Both the position numbers and the translations under genes were made by a program. The notes under the pieces are model-generated. The model worked only from the letters and a program-made list of their open reading frames with translations, was not told the origin of the DNA and ran no database searches. Below are positions 4,896 to 62,006 of a DNA stretch of 64,000 nt, piece after piece. The stretch lies in the sequence record MH752840.1, one strand, 5' to 3'. Numbering within the stretch: the first letter of the stretch is position 1; every line of letters starts with the position of its first letter. Source of the DNA: Escherichia phage vB_EcoM-Pr121LW.

Positions 4896-6386
4896 GTGGC
4901 TAAGTATGGATTGACAGAGGCTGGTTTCGTTATACCAACCCTAAATGACCTAATCGTTGAAACTAAGCAAAGCCTGATCCGTGCTTTTGGCGAAAACTTC
5001 AACGTACAGAGTAACTCCGTTGCAGATAAGCTGACCACTATCTTCAACGAGCGAGAGTATCAACTTATTCTTATGGCAGCATCTGTATACGCATCACAGA
5101 CGCTGTATGGGGCAGAAGGTATTTACCTAGACGAACTTCTTGGAAGACGGGGTATTTACCGAAGAGGCCGTTCTAAATCATCAGGTACCTGCCAGTTGAC
5201 GATCAACACAACTGTTCCGTACAATATGATTTACGATTCCAAAACTTATACGTTGGATAGTGGCAACTTTGTTCTTAGCAATGATGTGCAAGTAGCAGGG
5301 AATCTTATTGCTCACAGAATAAATGCTCCAGACCTAAGGATTGGTAAATACAACTTTCAAATTACCAACCAGACAGATGGAAGTATCAAAACAAAAAGTC
5401 TGGTTTTAACAGATAAGGCTCTGGACTCTTCTGATCTGCCAAGCTTTTACGGAGAGATTAAGCAATTCATTGTCGATAATACAACTCTGTTGAACGACGA
5501 TTTGATTCAGATCGATATGTTGACAGGAACGTTGTGGATAGGGTACAATTCGAATCTTGACCAAGTTGGACTTAATAGTAGGGTAGATTTCAGAGTATCC
5601 CCGATTGTAGGGGAAAGAACTATCACCCTAGATGTTATCGCTAACGAGGCTGGTGAGCTGTCAAGAGAGGCAGAAACCGTGACAACAATGTCACCTACTC
5701 CCAGTGGATTTATCAAGCTTACCAACCGAGAAAGATTCAATGAGGGAAGGGATGTTGAGAAAGACTCAGAGTACCGCTTAAGAGCTTCCAGCACAAAACA
5801 GTTAACATCTAAGGCTACCCGTCCTGCAATCCTTAGCGCTGTAAGCGAGGTGAAAGGTGTTGAGAAAGTGAGAGTGTTCTCTAACAATACCGATAAAACT
5901 GATGCTAAAGGTATACCTCCTTACAAGTTCCAAGTGGTTGTGTTTGGTGGTGCAACAGAGGACATTTGCCAAGCACTTTACCAAACTATAGCCTGTACGA
6001 ACAGGACTTATGGTAATATTTTCTACGATGTAACTACATCTGACGGTCAAACTGAAAGAATTTATTATTCCAAGGCAAATACCTACCGCCTGGATGTAAG
6101 AATTACCTACTCCGGTGCTGCGCTTTCCACAACCGAAAAAGATGCCATTGTAGAGGCTCTTTTGCAGGTTGTTAACGGACTGGATGTTGCAGATACGTTG
6201 TACAATATCCAATTGGTCGGTGCTGCATCTGCTGCTGTGTCGATAGGTAGATTTAATAGACTGGTAATTCAAGTTAAACCTGTGGGTGCTTCTGATGAAG
6301 CTTACACTGCAAACGATATTGTTGCAAACATGACCGAGGTGTTTGACCTCGATGAAAGTAATATAACTTTCCAACAAACTATTTAG
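4896..6386 (+). CDS. tail/baseplate structural protein (baseplate J-like candidate)
   Basis: 496 aa, GTG start with GGAGGA SD; position after J; N-terminal pattern loosely like baseplate J family. Confidence 0.5.
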   Translation: MAKYGLTEAGFVIPTLNDLIVETKQSLIRAFGENFNVQSNSVADKLTTIFNEREYQLILMAASVYASQTLYGAEGIYLDELLGRRGIYRRGRSKSSGTCQLTINTTVPYNMIYDSKTYTLDSGNFVLSNDVQVAGNLIAHRINAPDLRIGKYNFQITNQTDGSIKTKSLVLTDKALDSSDLPSFYGEIKQFIVDNTTLLNDDLIQIDMLTGTLWIGYNSNLDQVGLNSRVDFRVSPIVGERTITLDVIANEAGELSREAETVTTMSPTPSGFIKLTNRERFNEGRDVEKDSEYRLRASSTKQLTSKATRPAILSAVSEVKGVEKVRVFSNNTDKTDAKGIPPYKFQVVVFGGATEDICQALYQTIACTNRTYGNIFYDVTTSDGQTERIYYSKANTYRLDVRITYSGAALSTTEKDAIVEALLQVVNGLDVADTLYNIQLVGAASAAVSIGRFNRLVIQVKPVGASDEAYTANDIVANMTEVFDLDESNITFQQTI

Positions 6387-6397
6387 GGCGGTGAGAT

Positions 6398-7084
6398 ATG
6401 GCAGAGATTAAGTCGGATGTTAACCACATCCACACTCTGCCAGATTTTGTTCAGGGGGGTCTTGACTACCTGCCTGGAGATTTTCTGGCTGAGAAGGTTA
6501 ATTTAGTCACATTCTTAACCGTGTACCTTAAAAGGTTGGAGGATGTTGATAAGATGCTGGTAGGTTTGGCTGAAGGAAGATTGCTTAACAATGCCAGCGG
6601 AAGATACCTTGACGAAGTTGGTAATCAACTCGGTATTCTTAGGAATGGACTTTCAGATGCTGATTTTCGTGCCACACTAATTATTCAGCAGGCCGCAGCA
6701 TCAAGGGGCGGGACTCGCGAAGATGTCATCTCCACCTTGCGACAATTGTTCGGAAGAGACAATTTCGATACGTGGAAAGGAGACAACTTCAGGTTTGACA
6801 TAAATATTAGAAAAACTTGCTTTGACATATTGCAGTCTATTGATCAGATCTTAGACATGCTACCACTGCCTTGTCATTTGCGTCTTACAGAATCGCAAGG
6901 GCAAGCTTTTGGTTTTGAAGGTGACTCTACAGCTCTTGGCTTCGGATCAGTGTGGGAAGAAAACCAATTCGGAGTTGGTGGGCTGGCTACTTTGCTGTAT
7001 GTTCCTGACGTAAGACCTGATTGGGACACCACAACCATTTATTGTGAAAGCATTACAGTAAACGCAACTAGACAGGAGGGTTAA
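6398..7084 (+). CDS. tail/baseplate structural protein
   Basis: 228 aa; tightly packed within tail operon; stop overlaps next start. Confidence 0.5.
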   Translation: MAEIKSDVNHIHTLPDFVQGGLDYLPGDFLAEKVNLVTFLTVYLKRLEDVDKMLVGLAEGRLLNNASGRYLDEVGNQLGILRNGLSDADFRATLIIQQAAASRGGTREDVISTLRQLFGRDNFDTWKGDNFRFDINIRKTCFDILQSIDQILDMLPLPCHLRLTESQGQAFGFEGDSTALGFGSVWEENQFGVGGLATLLYVPDVRPDWDTTTIYCESITVNATRQEG

Positions 7085-9156
7085 TGGCAACAGCTGTTTT
7101 TAAACCTTACCGTGATTACTCTACAATGGCTGCACGGTTTCATTACCGCACAGTTCAGGATACTGCCGTTCCTGGTAGGGATTATGATCATGTTGAGGGC
7201 GATATAACTATCCCAGTTGGGGCAACCAGTATTGAGATTCCAGTGGAAATTGTTGACAAATTACCCAACAGGTTACCAAGAAGCTTCTTTATGGAGTTTT
7301 CATCAAAATCTCAAGGGGTGATGATTGGAACACAAAGGGCGAAATGCACAATAGTTTCAGATGAGAATCTTGACAGGATATCTTGGGATACTGTCGAGGA
7401 GAGAATGTTTCACCCAAGATATTGGGTTACAACTACTCAGCAGACTGAAAGTACCTGTATTGTTGCAGATGACAACTGTTGTATTAACCGTTTAGTGTCA
7501 AGAACATATGGAGGTATGGCTGGGTGCATTTGGGAAACAGTTGACAAGTATGACCATTTCGGTATTGGGTTTGATGATCACTATGAGATGAGAAACACCA
7601 AGCTTTGGTTCAGAATGTCAATAACCAATGCCAGCAACTTCTCCACTCCTGAAAAGATGATTATGACTGTAGACCTTGTTGATGGTACAATCATCTATGT
7701 TCCTTTAGCTCAATATGCTGTCAGCATCTCAGAGGATAAGAATGTTGCAGAGATTCATATTGATTTCGAGGACTGCGTCGGGATGGATCAGAACAACAAC
7801 ATGATGGGTGTTGATCCTCGACAGGTGAGAAGAATTTTAATACCGCTTATGCCTAAAGACTGGGTAAGTAATAGCACAGACCCGAGAACGGAAAATGTAG
7901 AGTGTGAGTTGCGCCTAGATCTGCTTCAGCCAGACACGGGCTGGAAAATGATGCAACTTAACAATATTCAGGTTAAAGAGCACGACGTTGGGATCTGCAC
8001 CGCATATGACGATATGTGGAACGTATCTCCTTTAAGGGTGTTGAACAATATCAAGCGTCTGGGCTATACCGGAACCATAAACCATTATGTTGGTATGAGT
8101 CATTATTATGACTACACATGGTCAGGAACCCAATGGTCTATAAACAGAACAGGGGCGCTAAACGCTGCAGCTTATAAATGGCATGATGATTTTATGTACA
8201 ATGCCAAACGACATAACTTCGACGTTATGCAGTCTGTAAGTTTTGAGCTTTACAGCGATGCCTGCCCGTTGGAATGGACCCAAAGAGACTGGAATGATAA
8301 CTACGCTAAAACAGGATATACACCTTGTAGCTACCTCCTGTCTCCAACCATTGAAGAGGGTATGAATTTCCTTACTGCAGTATTTAAGAATTTTGCATCA
8401 GCCGCTATGAGAAACAACCTGCCAGTGATTATGCAGGTTGGTGAACCGTGGTGGTGGTACAATACCGATACTCGTAGACCTTGTATTTATGATTACCCTA
8501 CAAAACAGGCGTTTTATGATGAGACAGGCGAGTATGCCTTAGATATTGGGACTATTGACGATCCTAAAACTGGAGGTGTTTACGACAAGTATGTAGCATT
8601 TTGTCGTGGTAAGCTTGGCGCTCGTATTGCGGCTATTTCAAAGGCAATAAAGGCGCATGCTGCATCAGCTAAGATGACAGCTCTGCTGTTTTTCCCAACC
8701 ATTATGGAAACCGAACTTACGCAAAAGCTTAACCTTGCTGACCAATATAAAAAAGAAGCAGGTGCTCTTGATTTCTTCTGCACTGAGTGCTACGATTGGG
8801 TGATGCAGGGAGGTATTGAAAAGGCAAAAGAGTCTGTAAACATACCTATCGTTAAGTTAGGTTGGCAACCGTCTGAAATACAATACCTTGCAGGGTTCGT
8901 TCCTAGTAAAGAGCTTGCTCCGGTATATGGATACGACCCAACTAGGAATTACCAAGAATTTTTATGGAGATGTATTTGCGGAAACATGGCAACTATAGAG
9001 TATAGATACCCTGAGGTAAAACAGTATGTGTGGGCATACCCGCAAGTAATGTCTGACAGCATCACTGTTACCGCTAGAGATTCTACCGTGCTTCATATGG
9101 GGCAGGTTGCTCTGAAAGGGTATGTAGAAGATGTTGTCCCGCCAGACTTCTCATAA
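7084..9156 (+). CDS. tail structural protein
   Basis: 690 aa; ATG overlaps upstream stop (TAATG); tail operon context. Confidence 0.5.
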   Translation: MATAVFKPYRDYSTMAARFHYRTVQDTAVPGRDYDHVEGDITIPVGATSIEIPVEIVDKLPNRLPRSFFMEFSSKSQGVMIGTQRAKCTIVSDENLDRISWDTVEERMFHPRYWVTTTQQTESTCIVADDNCCINRLVSRTYGGMAGCIWETVDKYDHFGIGFDDHYEMRNTKLWFRMSITNASNFSTPEKMIMTVDLVDGTIIYVPLAQYAVSISEDKNVAEIHIDFEDCVGMDQNNNMMGVDPRQVRRILIPLMPKDWVSNSTDPRTENVECELRLDLLQPDTGWKMMQLNNIQVKEHDVGICTAYDDMWNVSPLRVLNNIKRLGYTGTINHYVGMSHYYDYTWSGTQWSINRTGALNAAAYKWHDDFMYNAKRHNFDVMQSVSFELYSDACPLEWTQRDWNDNYAKTGYTPCSYLLSPTIEEGMNFLTAVFKNFASAAMRNNLPVIMQVGEPWWWYNTDTRRPCIYDYPTKQAFYDETGEYALDIGTIDDPKTGGVYDKYVAFCRGKLGARIAAISKAIKAHAASAKMTALLFFPTIMETELTQKLNLADQYKKEAGALDFFCTECYDWVMQGGIEKAKESVNIPIVKLGWQPSEIQYLAGFVPSKELAPVYGYDPTRNYQEFLWRCICGNMATIEYRYPEVKQYVWAYPQVMSDSITVTARDSTVLHMGQVALKGYVEDVVPPDFS

Positions 9157-9168
9157 TCAGGAGATAAA

Positions 9169-10209
9169 ATGTCAAAACCTAGTTTTCCATTAGAGATTTG
9201 GGCAGAGGAGGATCAGGTTCTGCCTAACACCCACAGACAGAACAGGCTACGCCCGATTGATGATTTGTGGAGAAAAGGTTGGGATCTTGGTCAAAAGCCC
9301 TCATGTGAAGAACTTAACTATATTTTCAATATGCTCGGAACTTGGGCAAAATATATTGCTGACGAGCAGATCCCCGCTCAAGAAGGCCGTTATCTGGTAC
9401 GCGATAATAACTTGAGTGATCTTTTGAACATTCCTGTTGCCCGTAGAAACCTTGGGATTATTACTAAGGAAGAGGCAGACGCCAGGTATGTAAAAGTTAC
9501 AGGTGATACAATGACAGGCCCACTGGGTTTGCAACGTATCAACTTTAAAGCTGCCGAGACAGATAAGGCTTGGATAGAGACAACTATTGGCCCAGATAAG
9601 ACAACTCTCGACTTTGGGTTAAGTGATAATACCGGGTCGTTTGATGATGGTGGTACATCTACAGTAGATGCGTTTCGTTGGAGATTCCAGCCAACTCAAC
9701 CGGATATCAATCCGGAGTTCACTTTGATGTACCTTAACGCGATCACGGCTAACCGTGCGCTGTTGAAAGTGATAGGCAATGTTGAAGTTGTCGATAACAT
9801 GAGGTGCAATAACCTTACTATCAGCAATACAGCAACATTCACCAACTGTAATGTGGCTAGTCAGTTGACGGCTGGGTCAGTGTATGTTAATGGTGGTACA
9901 AGTTGTGACAGTATGGTTGTAAGAAGTCAGCACTGTGTTGTCGGTAACAGAAATGTGGTGCGCTCTGTGAATGGAGTGACGGCTAACGGTAACGGTGATG
10001 TAACAATCACTATCCCGCAGACAGGTGTGCAAGACATCAGAATCGGTGCAAGACTTGTTGACGGCGTTTCTGAATCTCCAATTCGCAACGGCTACGTTGT
10101 CACAGGCTGGCATTTCGGTGACAAAAAAGAGATGCGTGGTTCAACCTACTGGGCAGGACCTTTACAAAAACTTGTAAATGGTCAATGGATCACTGTTAAT
10201 TATGCATAG
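9169..10209 (+). CDS. tail fibre protein, paralogue A
   Basis: 346 aa; GDTMTGPL motif; N- and C-termini (…KLVNGQWITVNYA) shared with 11224..12267; followed by Tfa-like gene. Confidence 0.7.
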   Translation: MSKPSFPLEIWAEEDQVLPNTHRQNRLRPIDDLWRKGWDLGQKPSCEELNYIFNMLGTWAKYIADEQIPAQEGRYLVRDNNLSDLLNIPVARRNLGIITKEEADARYVKVTGDTMTGPLGLQRINFKAAETDKAWIETTIGPDKTTLDFGLSDNTGSFDDGGTSTVDAFRWRFQPTQPDINPEFTLMYLNAITANRALLKVIGNVEVVDNMRCNNLTISNTATFTNCNVASQLTAGSVYVNGGTSCDSMVVRSQHCVVGNRNVVRSVNGVTANGNGDVTITIPQTGVQDIRIGARLVDGVSESPIRNGYVVTGWHFGDKKEMRGSTYWAGPLQKLVNGQWITVNYA

Positions 10210-50792: not shown

Positions 50793-50982
50793 GCTTAAAT
50801 CCGCATGGAACATTGCTGTAGGTGACGAGATCCGTATTCCCGGTGGAGAAACTATTATGAAGATATCTCGTATCGAGTATGAAGGTGACCGTGTATTCCA
50901 CATCTTTGCAGAAGATGGTCGAGAAATTTATATACAGGCAGGCTCTCACATCTATATCCGTAAGAAAGGGGACGACAAATGA
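50785..50982 (+). CDS. hypothetical protein
   Basis: ORF track 50719; ATG 50785 after AAGGAGGG preferred. Confidence 0.45.
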   Translation: MFKLKSAWNIAVGDEIRIPGGETIMKISRIEYEGDRVFHIFAEDGREIYIQAGSHIYIRKKGDDK

Positions 50983-51311
50983 CAGAGATCATCGTTTCAA
51001 CTGCAGGGTATGTATTCCTGACAATCATTGCGCTGGCTATTCTGGTGGCGGTGTATGGATTTGTTATCCTGCCTATTCTTGAGACATTTAGTTTGTGTCG
51101 GTGTTGGAGAAAAGCTTACGGACCACAACCGTGGAAAGACTGGTTCCATTTGGTGCGTATAGCGTTCTCTTATGCCTATGACCACTCTAGCAGTGCATGC
51201 GTAACCGGGTACCATGCCTACAACTGGAACTGGGAAGGGTTGGGGAGATGGACTGTTACAAAAACTATACCCTTACGGTTGTACAAAGGAAAGAACAAAC
51301 TGGGCACCTGA
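50979..51311 (+). CDS. small membrane protein
   Basis: 110 aa; N-terminal hydrophobic helix FLTIIALAILVAVYGFVILPIL. Confidence 0.5.
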   Translation: MTEIIVSTAGYVFLTIIALAILVAVYGFVILPILETFSLCRCWRKAYGPQPWKDWFHLVRIAFSYAYDHSSSACVTGYHAYNWNWEGLGRWTVTKTIPLRLYKGKNKLGT

Positions 51312-51355
51312 TATTTTAAGTTATCAGGTTCCCAGAGATCAGGAGGATTTCTAAA

Positions 51356-51568
51356 ATGGATTTCCTCCTTTTGATATTTCACCGGACCAGATATTTTAAA
51401 ATTCTTAGAAAATCAGAAAATGGATCGAAAACTAAAATGGATTTTTTCAACACAGGCGCGGAAAATTGTGCCAATCTATCTAGCCGTTTGCACCATATTC
51501 GAAATCACCGTTCCAGATTTCCCACACATACACACCTCCCCGCCATACCTTTCTCCACTCACTCTTAG
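51356..51568 (+). CDS. basic His/Arg-rich hypothetical protein
   Basis: 70 aa; strong AGGAGG SD 7 nt upstream; sits inside repeat-rich region so coding status uncertain. Confidence 0.35.
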   Translation: MDFLLLIFHRTRYFKILRKSENGSKTKMDFFNTGAENCANLSSRLHHIRNHRSRFPTHTHLPAIPFSTHS

Positions 51569-51620
51569 TGATTTATGACGGAAAACCCATCACTATCAGT
51601 GAGTTGCGGTACAATTTTTC

Positions 51621-51800
51621 CAGTACTCGATCTACTTTTCATTTCATGGTTTGGATTTTCTGAAAATTTTTCTCGATAAATTTCTCAGTACTCGATCTGT
51701 TTTTCGTTTTCTGAATCGGATTTTCTGGAAATCGTTCCGGCTCTCGACCTGAAATTTTTGGGGACGAAATCGATTTTTCGTTTTCAGAAATGGATTTTTA
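51621..51800. repeat. AT-rich direct repeats with ~65-bp period (two good copies plus a degenerate third)
   Basis: CAGTACTCGATCT at 51621 and 51686; shared TTTTCnTTTTC…GGATTTTCTGRAAA tails. Confidence 0.7.
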
Positions 51801-51912
51801 AAATTTCTATATGGGAATATTTTATGGGGTACTGTTTTATAGGAAATTGTTACGGATGGTAATTAGCATGCTAATTAAATTTATTAAATGCGAGGAGTTC
51901 TCATTTAGAATT

Positions 51913-51931
51913 TTGAATGATAATCATTCTC
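51913..51931. promoter_or_regulatory. Fur-box-like palindrome (15/19 to GATAATGATAATCATTATC)
   Basis: ttgAATGATAATCATTcTC; core AATGATAATCATT is a perfect 6-1-6 palindrome. Confidence 0.35.
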
Positions 51932-51946
51932 GTTTGCAGAATAACG

Positions 51947-51969
51947 GGCAGGCCCGGTGATTGTCTCCC
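51947..51969 (+). repeat. GC-rich 23-bp element GGCAGGCCCGGTGATTGTCTCCC (copy A)
   Basis: Inverted copy at 61604-61626 (22/23 identical); variant at 52088-52121. Confidence 0.8.
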
Positions 51970-52048
51970 GGCCCCTACTGCCCCGGCTTGCTATTATAGT
52001 AACACACAGGACAAAGAAAGCAAGAAGTTTTTGCATAAATTTTTAGAC

Positions 52049-52067
52049 GATAATGATAATCGTTCTC
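52049..52067. promoter_or_regulatory. Fur-box-like site (17/19 to GATAATGATAATCATTATC)
   Basis: GATAATGATAATCgTTcTC; followed 20 nt later by GC element variant, repeating the arrangement at 51913-51969. Confidence 0.4.
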
Positions 52068-52087
52068 ATTTCATGCAGCGCCCATCC

Positions 52088-52121
52088 CCGGTGGTTGTCT
52101 CCCCCGTCACCGGTGCCTGCC
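52088..52121. repeat. variant GC element CCGGTGGTTGTCTCCC…CACCGGTGCCTGCC (copy B)
   Basis: Carries both halves of the 23-bp element in rearranged, partly inverted form. Confidence 0.6.
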
Positions 52122-52146
52122 GTCCTTTCGATAGGTATATTGTGCC

Positions 52147-52285
52147 ACCTGGCGGGGCCGCTGTCAACACTTTTCAAAAAATTTTTCTAACCTGATGCGC
52201 TAACCGCTGCAACCTGGCGGGGCCAGCCTGGCAGTACCTAACTGACCAGGTAGGAGAGAATGAAGGCTTGTAAACCTGGTGGGCC
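52147..52285 (+). repeat. three direct copies of ACCTGG(C/T)GGGCC at 62-65 bp spacing
   Basis: Copies at 52147, 52212 and 52274; related copies at 52451 and 59321. Confidence 0.6.
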
Positions 52286-52326
52286 TATGCTATAGGATAG
52301 GTAACAATTGAAGAGGAGGTACAAAA

Positions 52327-52503
52327 ATGAAAGGTAATATAATCCCCCTGGAAAATGTAGCTATTAATGACGCTGAGGCTATCGCCCTGGTTGAAAAGGC
52401 TATGGCGGGAGCGTTGGAACATAAAGAAGAGTACGAAAAAATGATGGTTAACCTGGCAGGGGCGGCGGCTGGAGAATTCTGCCCAAAAAATAATTTTACA
52501 TAA
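52327..52503 (+). CDS. small hypothetical protein (58 aa, not in ORF track)
   Basis: GAGGAGG SD 7 nt upstream of ATG; stop abuts next promoter. Confidence 0.45.
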   Translation: MKGNIIPLENVAINDAEAIALVEKAMAGALEHKEEYEKMMVNLAGAAAGEFCPKNNFT

Positions 52504-52506
52504 TGG

Positions 52507-52535
52507 TTGACAGCTCGGATAGTTCTTGTTATTCT
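52507..52535 (+). promoter_or_regulatory. sigma70-like promoter TTGACA-17-TATTCT
   Basis: -35 at 52507-52512, -10 at 52530-52535. Confidence 0.5.
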
Positions 52536-52587
52536 TATCCTCGCAAGGTGAACAACACCACACTAATTAACAAAGAGGATAAAAATC

Positions 52588-52785
52588 ATGAACGCATACG
52601 GAATCAAAGTACGTCGCAACACTCGCCAGGTGGTCACCGACCAAGTGATTTGCCGGGTGGATGTAACCATCAACAACGGGCAAGGCCTTTATAAATTTCG
52701 TCGCGGTCATAGCTATACCCTGCAACAGCTTAACCGTTGCGCCCTGACAAAAGGTCAGATCAACCACTGGTTTAATAAAAAATAA
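52588..52785 (+). CDS. small basic hypothetical protein
   Basis: 65 aa; SD/start context AAGAGGATAAAAATCATG. Confidence 0.5.
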   Translation: MNAYGIKVRRNTRQVVTDQVICRVDVTINNGQGLYKFRRGHSYTLQQLNRCALTKGQINHWFNKK

Positions 52786-52788
52786 ATA

Positions 52789-52817
52789 TTGACATATAGT
52801 CTGACACAAAATATACT
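52789..52817 (+). promoter_or_regulatory. sigma70 promoter TTGACA-17-TATACT
   Basis: -35 at 52789-52794, -10 at 52812-52817. Confidence 0.65.
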
Positions 52818-52849
52818 GAAATCACAAAAGACACTAAGAGGATAAAATC

Positions 52850-53248
52850 ATGAAAACCACAACCTTTAATTTTGATAATGCCGACTTCTCTTTTTCTGAT
52901 GTCAAGAACTGCCGCCGTGATCGTGGATTTTACAAGGCTTATAATCTGGTGGGCCTGGACGATGACAATAATTTGCACGAAGTAGCTGAGATCCGGTATT
53001 ATGCCGCCTCCAGCGGTAACACTCATTATTGCGTCTTTTGGATGCACGACAGCAAGAACAACAAGTACGGTTATACTGGTGGCAAGGCGAGCGGTCACGG
53101 TTATGATAAGGCCAATGCAGCACTTGAAAGCGCGTTAAATGCTATGGGGATCACTGCCAACGGCTGGATCTATGAAGATGAGTTTTTGTCAGCACTTGCT
53201 GCCCACCTGGGGTATAAAAAGCACATTGTGACATGCGCCCACGAATAA
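52850..53248 (+). CDS. hypothetical protein
   Basis: 132 aa; SD AAGAGGATAAAATCATG. Confidence 0.55.
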   Translation: MKTTTFNFDNADFSFSDVKNCRRDRGFYKAYNLVGLDDDNNLHEVAEIRYYAASSGNTHYCVFWMHDSKNNKYGYTGGKASGHGYDKANAALESALNAMGITANGWIYEDEFLSALAAHLGYKKHIVTCAHE

Positions 53249-59320: not shown

Positions 59321-59384
59321 ACCTGGCGGGGCCGAAAAGGCCCCTACAGCATAAAATTATGAAAATAAAGAGAGGTAAATCATC

Positions 59385-61516: not shown

Positions 61517-61603
61517 ATAAAAAGTGTTTTGGTACTGATTTTGGGGTTGACTTGTTCGGCCCCTTTTGCTATTCTTATTAAACGGGCGGCACTTGGGAAC
61601 AGG

Positions 61604-61626
61604 GGGAGACAATCACCAGGCCTGCC
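61604..61626 (-). repeat. GC-rich 23-bp element, inverted copy C (reverse complement GGCAGGCCTGGTGATTGTCTCCC)
   Basis: 22/23 identical to copy A at 51947-51969 in opposite orientation. Confidence 0.8.
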
Positions 61627-61733: not shown

Positions 61734-62006
61734 ATGTCAAGCTGGATTAATCAAGAAGTCGAATCACGTTTTAATGCTATTTGGGATCTCATCGAAAAAG
61801 AAGACGGCACATCAAGCCCCTACCTCAACAATTTGGAATTCCATTTTGTGGAAGCGATGAACGCAGAACATGATCACGAAGGTGGTGCGGACGAGTTCGC
61901 TAAAGGGTATGGCTTCAACAATGCCAATGAAATGATCGAGGCGGTTGTGCTCCAGGCTGAGGAAGATTATCAATTAAAAACGCTTGAATTCTGCCGCCGT
62001 AAGTAA
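61734..62006 (+). CDS. acidic hypothetical protein
   Basis: 90 aa; AGAGAGGAAAACACTATG context. Confidence 0.55.
   Translation: MSSWINQEVESRFNAIWDLIEKEDGTSSPYLNNLEFHFVEAMNAEHDHEGGADEFAKGYGFNNANEMIEAVVLQAEEDYQLKTLEFCRRK

Follow-up and report, generated by a model that had tools for sequence, protein, structure and literature searches.

The closest described precedents for Fur operators on phage DNA come from temperate phages, the stx1 promoter of H-19B/933J-type phages carrying a box for this host iron sensor. The sitABCD genes of lambdoid prophages are a further case (Mathieu et al. 2020, PMC6969025). In both, the box fronts a cargo gene expressed from the lysogen and places it in the host Fur regulon. 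A full-text search of the literature on Fur boxes in phage genomes returned these prophage cargo cases only (sitABCD, PMC6969025, and Shiga toxin) and nothing on virulent phages. On the host side, footprinted E. coli Fur operators are clusters of sites offset by 6 (or 3) bp, each described by a 19-bp single-dimer model (Chen et al. 2007, PMC2189734). We analysed here two Fur-box-like palindromes lying in a noncoding gap of Escherichia phage vB_EcoM-Pr121LW (MH752840.1), within a stretch of 64,000 nucleotides (nt) referred to below as the window. Escherichia phages isim and rV5 (genus Vequintavirus) share 96-97% identity with the region around the sites. Like the prophage boxes, the palindromes would be host Fur sites on phage DNA; in contrast to them, they belong to strictly lytic phages, front no cargo gene and occupy a conserved noncoding region common to whole subfamilies. 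Fur binding to them appears likely from their sequence, and they could, more tentatively, act as operators placed downstream of a leftward promoter.

In the preliminary description of this DNA, the two palindromes were scored against the classical 19-bp Fur consensus GATAATGATAATCATTATC, and both positions and scores proved exact: 51913-51931 (TTGAATGATAATCATTCTC) matches at 15/19 and 52049-52067 (GATAATGATAATCGTTCTC) at 17/19. Scoring relied throughout on consensus counts and on identity to the host mntH operator, in place of a weight matrix derived from footprinted operators. When both strands were scanned in full, the two sites ranked first and second in the window, the runner-up reaching 14/19; in the classical register with at most three mismatches, 52049 is the sole match, for 0.04 expected in dinucleotide shuffles. 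The consensus of the phage family, derived from relatives, is a 9-1-9 palindrome, AATGAGAAT-N-ATTCTCATT, whose centre lies 3 bp to the right of the register used initially. It corresponds to the palindromic Fur form AATGATAATNATTATCATT (7-1-7 core TGATAATnATTATCA), modified symmetrically by a T-to-G / A-to-C variant. In this register the main 19-mers, 51916-51934 (AATGATAATCATTCTCGTT) and 52052-52070 (AATGATAATCGTTCTCATT), both match the palindromic form at 16/18. They are the only window matches to the degenerate palindrome pattern AATGAKAATNATTMTCATT, with one mismatch each (0.19 matches expected at up to three mismatches), and their two homologues are the only 16/18 sites in the full rV5 genome (138 kb).

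Each main site is overlapped by a weaker partner exactly 6 bp upstream, at 51910-51928 (13/18) and 52046-52064 (14/18), and the two putative operators hence extend over 51910-51934 (box 1) and 52046-52070 (box 2). A strong site with a partner 6 bp away is also the arrangement of the E. coli clusters, and such 6-bp pairs recur in the homologous arrays of related phages. A third and degenerate box, box 0 (51887-51905, AATGCGAGGAGTTCTCATT), precedes box 1 by 29 nt and matches the family consensus AATGAGAATNATTCTCATT at 14/18. Such further boxes nearby recall the 30-100 bp footprints of the E. coli operators, with the difference that secondary boxes are about 29 nt apart in the phages and contiguous in the E. 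coli clusters. Moreover, 83% of the latter overlap a sigma-70 promoter (Chen et al. 2007), an overlap that is doubtful here.

The most direct link to a host operator is given by mntH. When the 41 nt surrounding box 1 were compared by BLAST with 5,426 complete E. coli genomes, a single locus was matched, the nupC-mntH intergenic region, where positions 51918-51936 of the window (TGATAATCATTCTCGTTTG) are identical at 19/19 consecutive bases to the mntH promoter of 3,923 E. coli genomes. In the retrieved mntH locus (L134) the match covers bases 1501-1519 and precedes the mntH start by 45-63 nt. The strongest mntH Fur site was reported at 19.9 bits, centred at -56 from the ATG, with references for its Fur regulation (Chen et al. 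2007), a score that ranks it among the strongest E. coli Fur clusters. Position -56 is the C of TGATAAT-C-ATTCTC, a register shared with box 1, both sites being palindromes centred on this C with an ATTCTC right half. Over the 19 bp of the mntH site the phage differs at two positions, both in the flanks and both nearer to the consensus in the phage. The settings are different: the regulated promoter of mntH, as it can be assigned from the sequence, has its likely -35 (TTGATA) and its spacer under the box, whereas no comparable conserved promoter covers the phage box and the supported promoter lies 55-75 nt off, aimed at the box. The dual repression of mntH by Fe-Fur and Mn-MntR (Patzer & Hantke 2001, as cited by Chen et al. 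2007) is likewise without counterpart, the phage having no MntR site. The phage palindromes thus combine a consensus match, a 6-bp overlapping cluster and equivalence to a host operator with experimental support, and Fur binding at these boxes is likely on these grounds.

The region is widely conserved. A sensitive BLAST search with 51880-52330 retrieved 242 phage records. The distant ones infect Klebsiella, Enterobacter, Cronobacter, Salmonella, Pectobacterium, Erwinia, Proteus and Aeromonas or belong to the phAPEC8-like coliphages (Stephanstirmvirinae); they keep approximately positions 1-92 of the query, mostly 34-92 (window 51913-51971, that is the box and an adjoining GC-rich element), at 76-88% identity between unalignable flanks, the identity over 51913-51971 being 80-88%. 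All the relatives fetched (12/12) have, at this place inside a noncoding gap of 0.7-1 kb, a box scoring 14/19 or more, several of them with 2-4 boxes at a spacing of about 29 nt, including intact boxes at the spacing of box 0. The 62 nt from the box to the core of the GC-rich element align without gap in 12 of 14 units, unit 2 of the window and one relative (locus L099) each having a 2-nt gap just after the box. Most of the invariant columns fall in the box and in the core GGTG(A/T)TTGTCTC, the core columns being invariant across 14 diverse phages. Box 1 is invariant in nine close rV5-like genomes, and box 2 is more variable among close relatives (T52060C; upstream GACG changed to AAAT). The two sites had been described as one duplicated composite unit and as not independent of each other. 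Both statements hold, since the box and the GC-rich element are each repeated (repeats D6, spacing 136, and D7, CCCGGTGRTTGTCTCCC, spacing 134) and unit 2 is a duplication of leader and box specific to the rV5 genus, other genera having one GC-rich element with 1-4 boxes. The distance from box to GC-rich element, given initially as 15-20 bp, measures 13-15 nt.

The same motif with 6-bp pairs also forms clusters in unrelated phages, which points to a host factor rather than a phage factor. In T5 (AY587007), direct repeat C copies 1-4 and palindromes E-I at 9468-9637 are Fur-like boxes of up to 17/18 (9577, AATGAGAATCATTATCATT), several of them with 6-bp partners; their position within the injection-stop region coincides with the first-step-transfer shear point and major nick 1. 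The corresponding locus of DT57C-type phages (including DT571/2, KM979355, locus ~6360-6985) contains 10 matches of at least 14/18 for 0.14 expected. Like the rV5-like gap, this untranslated repeat region 3 of T5 belongs to a large virulent coliphage, is long, noncoding and highly conserved, and is crowded with repeats and palindromes. It differs in sharing no homology outside the boxes and in its position within the terminal repeat, at the boundary of first-step transfer, rV5-like phages being reported as circularly permuted (phiTE, PVP-SE1). Davison (bioRxiv 10.1101/866236) proposed DnaA boxes in this T5 region, with Fur and iron unmentioned. Clusters of 2-6 Fur-type boxes in at most 200 nt, with 6-bp pairs, were also observed in four unidentified viral contigs of IMG/VR (L054, L074, L076 and L078), where the boxes of L074 and L078 adjoin repeats of TAGTACAAATGTACTA. 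The exact 16-mer scan of IMG/VR from which they derive, and which also led to the T5-like phages DT57C and DT571/2, gave more than 120 matches, near chance by rough estimate, and only the multi-copy loci were used.

The GC-rich element beside each box reads GGCA-N5-GGTGATTGTCTC on the + strand and, in the orientation predicted to be transcribed, GAGACAATCACC-N5-TGCC. Its sequence context identifies it as the leader motif of a promoter module of early type, which would be transcribed leftward in units 1 and 2, against the surrounding genes. The element does adjoin the box, as initially described; its placement simply downstream of the box does not hold, the box lying downstream of the promoter whose leader the element forms. 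The first copy occupies 51947-51967 (- strand) and the second 52081-52101 (- strand, core GGTGGTTGTCTC), where GGCA has degenerated to CCCA. Anchored on GGCA-N5-GGTGWTTGTCTC alone, and thus blind to the Fur box, a scan of IMG/VR recovered the element from many large phage contigs, often in more than one copy per genome, accompanied by Fur boxes or not. On the opposite strand of every copy a sigma-70-type promoter is followed, after 25-37 nt, by GAGACAAWCACC-N5-TGCC(Y)G. A promoter scoring at least 9/12 at this distance was found in 19 of 23 instances, on one strand only, and was usually rare in shuffles; the hexamers of these promoters are conserved and their spacers diverge. The motif gave no match in the 5,426 E. 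coli genomes, and a host origin was rejected for this reason. A partial match of the leader to the RfaH 'ops' sequence (GGCGGTAG in L099, GGCAGTAG in the window) was discarded as it is not conserved in other genera.

Read from right to left, the module consists of the promoter, some 25-37 nt, the leader motif, about 10 nt, 1-4 Fur boxes and an AT-rich region of direct repeats. In the window the order is P(-)2, leader 2, box 2, the -10 of P(-)1, leader 1, box 1, box 0, AT-rich DNA and the end of the upstream gene. P(-)2 (52139-52167, - strand) is predicted to be a strong sigma-70-type promoter, TTGACA-17-CACAAT with a TG upstream of the -10; its score of 10/12 was reached by 0 of 200 shuffles. 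In close relatives its -35 is invariant and its -10 varies between CACAAT, CAAAAT and CATAAT, with A-11 and T-7 kept. P(-)1 combines a perfect TATAAT (51993-51998, - strand) with a weak -35 (CTTTCT at 16 nt or TTGCTT at 19 nt) and scores 8/12 at 25 nt from the core; this TATAAT is invariant in close relatives, and promoters of 9-11/12 occupy the homologous position in other genera. With a predicted start of P(-)2 near 52132, the centre of box 2 falls at about +72, and that of box 1 at about +63 from P(-)1. The leftward transcript would be noncoding, with a G-rich 5' end, and would enter an origin-like region. A third copy of promoter and leader (61547-61626, + strand; TTGACT-17-TATTCT, 30 nt, GAGACAATCACCAGGCCTGCC) has the orientation of the genes and lacks a Fur box. 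Its homologues occur in rV5 (108186, - strand) and in Certrevirus-like contigs (L168, L180 and L161). It is followed by a promoter-like TTGACA-17-TAACAT upstream of the open reading frame (ORF) at 61734.

Taken together, these features lead us to propose that the two palindromes are genuine operators of host Fur type, each a pair of overlapping 19-bp sites, and that Fe-Fur of the host gates leftward transcription at them. This joint reading of operator and mechanism is the one we favour, and it is put forward tentatively. Iron-loaded Fur dimers would occupy the boxes, which at about +55 to +75 may act as a downstream operator or roadblock; this is the simplest model, as the boxes lie 55-75 nt ahead of the only conserved promoter, which is directed toward them. 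Fur bound there would limit leftward transcription into the AT-rich repeats and silence weak promoters inside the boxes, and transcription across the control region would depend on the iron state of the host, while replicating phage genomes would also soak up Fur. The leftward transcript could serve the activation or priming of an origin in the AT-rich repeats, or the antisense control of upstream early genes. Several observations weigh against this proposal. The boxes lie downstream of the supported promoter and not over its -35 or -10, which is not the classic geometry of a Fur-repressed promoter, and such a downstream position gives weak repression in E. coli (Chen et al. 2007). A conserved rightward promoter over the box was sought and not found: the best candidates, TTGAAT-18-CAGAAT and TTCTCA-18-AATCAT, score 8/12 each and vary between phages (CAGAAT becomes CTAAAT in L003), so that a Fur-overlapped rightward promoter is unsupported. 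The copy of the module without a box indicates that the Fur box is an add-on and not an integral part of the module. Lastly, the right half-site is almost always ATTCTC and not the Fur optimum ATTATC, which could reflect a different protein.

This last point is the main hint in favour of another origin of the sites, in which a dimeric DNA-binding protein encoded by the phage, an early repressor or an origin initiator with Fur-like specificity, would bind them and the region would be an origin or an early switch. The systematic preference for GAGAAT/ATTCTC over GATAAT/ATTATC would fit such a protein, as would the origin-like layout of 1-4 boxes at about 29 nt beside AT-rich direct repeats, the spacing fixed to a phage-specific motif absent from E. 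coli and the weaker boxes in the other large noncoding region of rV5. A phage regulator and its site would however be expected to drift together, and the motif is identical across many host genera, recurs with its 6-bp pairs in unrelated T5-like phages and reaches 19/19 identity with a host Fur operator. No Pfam DNA-binding domain was found in the small ORFs adjoining the gap, most phage ORFs lying outside this search. The invariance across host genera, the 6-bp pairing, the identity to mntH and the presence in unrelated phages favour a host factor, and we regard a phage protein as a rather doubtful, if serious, alternative. If Fur is the ligand, the selected function could still be its titration, the boxes sequestering Fur as genome copies rise and derepressing the host Fur regulon (iron and manganese uptake, Suf, NrdHIEF, RyhB), with their position relative to promoters incidental. 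Multicopy plasmids with one Fur box derepress fhuF, the principle of the Fur titration assay (FURTA), and as a cell contains about 5,000-10,000 Fur molecules, a few hundred genomes with 2-4 boxes binding two dimers each would represent a comparable load. Titration has a rationale because rV5 encodes iron-dependent ribonucleotide reductases, of class Ia and class III, together with a glutaredoxin, which the derepressed regulon would feed. The sites are moreover of high quality, multiple per genome and clustered in the noncoding DNA of unrelated phages without an obvious regulated gene. Against this, 2-3 boxes per rV5 genome make a modest load, and a decoy requires neither a constant position in one noncoding region nor an indel-free spacing to the leader motif across subfamilies. 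The fixed spacing argues for a role in cis rather than for a free-standing decoy, and titration as the selected function is accordingly an unlikely account.

An action of the palindrome and GC-rich element as RNA or single-stranded DNA (small RNA, terminator or processing hairpin, cruciform) is much less probable still. The box can form a hairpin of 6-9 bp, single sequences fold to -10 to -23 kcal/mol, and a closing stem is present in some instances (AUAGCGGG/CCCGCUAU in Pectobacterium phage DU_PP_I). On the + strand the only consensus structure given by RNAalifold is nevertheless the palindrome itself (-2.2 kcal/mol), and in the promoter orientation there is none (22 sequences). A two-helix model drawn by hand for the GC-rich element paired 67.6% of cells against 66.8% in shuffles, the apparent CCGG-type stems being the chance yield of GC-rich flanks, and Rfam (E<=1) matched nothing in this region of the window or in five relatives. 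No T-run terminator accompanies the palindrome, and the A-to-G change of box 2 would create a C-A mismatch in the supported minus transcript. The main box is usually asymmetric (GATAAT...ATTCTC) without compensating changes, which indicates a protein site rather than a hairpin. A RyhB-like small RNA repressed by Fur is no better supported: there is no conserved promoter over the box, no terminator after the units, no conserved fold and no Rfam match. Finally, the palindromes could be functionless, as chance products of an AT-rich region or as remnants of a tRNA or an ORF. The preliminary description had warned that AT-rich palindromes may match Fur boxes by chance; this is answered by the conservation, the ungapped block and its depth excluding a chance origin of sites for which 0.04-0.19 matches are expected per window. 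An ORF annotated in rV5 as gp193 (51917-52195) does start inside box 1, and a coding explanation is excluded because its homologue stops after 7 codons in a Klebsiella phage; the frame is broken in other genera and the conservation is at the DNA level. One record, Klebsiella phage vB_Kpn_K45PH128C2 (OY978796; L005 1511-1664), has a tRNA-Met and a tRNA-Ile annotated over the homologue of box and GC-rich element. ARAGORN detected no tRNA in the window or at the 'tRNA-Met' locus and no cloverleaf is present, so that the annotation is a mis-annotation, probably through misplaced coordinates. This functionless origin is effectively refuted.

Origins activated or primed by transcription are known in T7 (phi1.1A/B and the adjoining AT-rich region), T4 (oriF and oriG) and ColE1 (RNA II). 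The present module resembles them in that a promoter would fire into an AT-rich, repeat-bearing noncoding stretch, with a leftward transcript whose G-rich start (GGGG..GGG..GAGAC) would favour R-loops. It differs in that the promoter-leader module also precedes ordinary genes, no promoter for a countertranscript is supported, and the origin of this phage family has not been mapped. The skew analysis of the rV5 genome paper gave no origin (PMC3606486). About 600 nt of AT-rich DNA left of the boxes contain three iteron-like direct repeats of ~47-60 nt (51613-51800, spacing 65 and 74 nt), 80-nt repeats and an inverted repeat (51557-51604, 16-nt arms, 14/16 pairs). Other genera have related 'TTCTCGATCGA...TTTTCA' repeats at this position. 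DnaA-like boxes in the region, judged by eye, reach 8/9 at most. GATC is not enriched (3.9/kb in the region against 5.0/kb in the window), and Dam/GATC clustering was rejected as an origin hallmark; GC skew is uninformative, with no switch in the region. Within 51000-53000 a single terminator-like site was detected, at 51754-51791; this AT-rich hairpin lies left of the boxes, and neither unit is followed by one.

The AT-rich direct repeats also contain an exact TCGATAAATT at 51673-51682 (about 0.1 expected by chance per window), which we take to be the high-affinity nucleation motif of H-NS, a proximity reminiscent of the antagonism between Fur and H-NS at ftnA. To the right of the units, three copies of ACCTGG(C/T)GGGGCC are spaced by 62-65 nt (52146-52285), and these ACCTGGCGGGGCC repeats coincide with promoter spacers. 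The first copy is the spacer of P(-)2 and the third that of a candidate rightward promoter (TTGTAA-17-TATAGG, 52268-52296, + strand) upstream of the ORF at 52327. The shorter CCTGG(C/T)GGGGCC is found at 52146-52159, 52211-52224, 52273-52285 and 59322-59333, with 8 matches at up to two mismatches for 1.9 expected in shuffles, and forms the spacer of promoters in both orientations. The copy at 59322 lies in a GGGGCC-GAAAA-GGCCCC hairpin that follows a stop codon.

The noncoding gap itself extends over 1,015 nt (51312-52326), between the + strand ORFs 50979-51311 and 52327-52503 of the ORF list, which are small members of a long early-type gene cluster. The annotated neighbours are all hypothetical proteins, and the rV5 and isim annotations call merely dubious small ORFs inside the gap. 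The rV5 genome paper (PMC3606486) does not discuss the region, and the word 'intergenic' is absent from its main text. An inverted repeat at 51300-51335, without a T-run (CTGGGCACCTGATA / TATCAGGTTCCCAG; 14-nt arms, 13/14 pairs), spans the stop codon of ORF 50979-51311 and may be a processing site or a terminator. In genera other than that of rV5 (L128, L007, L005, L130, L131, L133 and L137), a strongly conserved noncoding block, absent from this window, lies about 60-230 nt to the right of the unit. It reads CTTTACAAnTCTTTACAAA ... ACTACCGGCGATCCACCTTCC...GTTAGCCCCGCCTTTTCGCCGTGGGGTGGCGTTTTCTC and has a terminator-like hairpin with a T-run at its end; it resembles an RNA gene, without an Rfam match. 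The pseudo-ToxI locus of phiTE, considered as a possible counterpart, is a different intergenic region, next to tRNAs. The other large noncoding region of rV5 (NC_011041, 104014-106617) is a 2.6 kb gene-free stretch where two transcription units converge; it starts at about 62896 of the window and passes its end. It contains weaker Fur-like boxes at 104982 (AATGGGAATACTTCTCATT), 105098 and 105116 (7-1-7 core TGAGAATAGTTATCA).

Fur operators on phage DNA were previously known only as switches of cargo genes in temperate phages (Shiga toxin 1, sitABCD); what would be new here is their location in a noncoding control module of strictly lytic phages, downstream of a promoter. The boxes suggest that these phages read or perturb the iron status of their host. 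It is conceivable, at a lower level of confidence than the operator reading itself, that Vequintavirinae, phAPEC8-like Stephanstirmvirinae and T5-like Demerecviridae carry conserved clusters of host Fur operators in long noncoding control regions, and that lytic phages thereby use the iron sensor of their host. Such a use could consist in timing transcription or replication by the iron supply, in titrating Fur to feed the phage ribonucleotide reductases, or in both. On this view, Fur would join the host factors that act at the injection-stop region of T5, through the boxes lying at the boundary of first-step transfer. If Fur binds these sites, the infection by rV5, PVP-SE1, phAPEC8 and phi92-type relatives, which are therapeutically popular broad-host-range phages, would be coupled to iron availability, which in the gut or in infected tissue is very different from that in laboratory broth. 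This would bear on the efficacy of phage therapy, on the question of phages and iron, and on the long conserved noncoding regions of these genomes that are so far unexplained.

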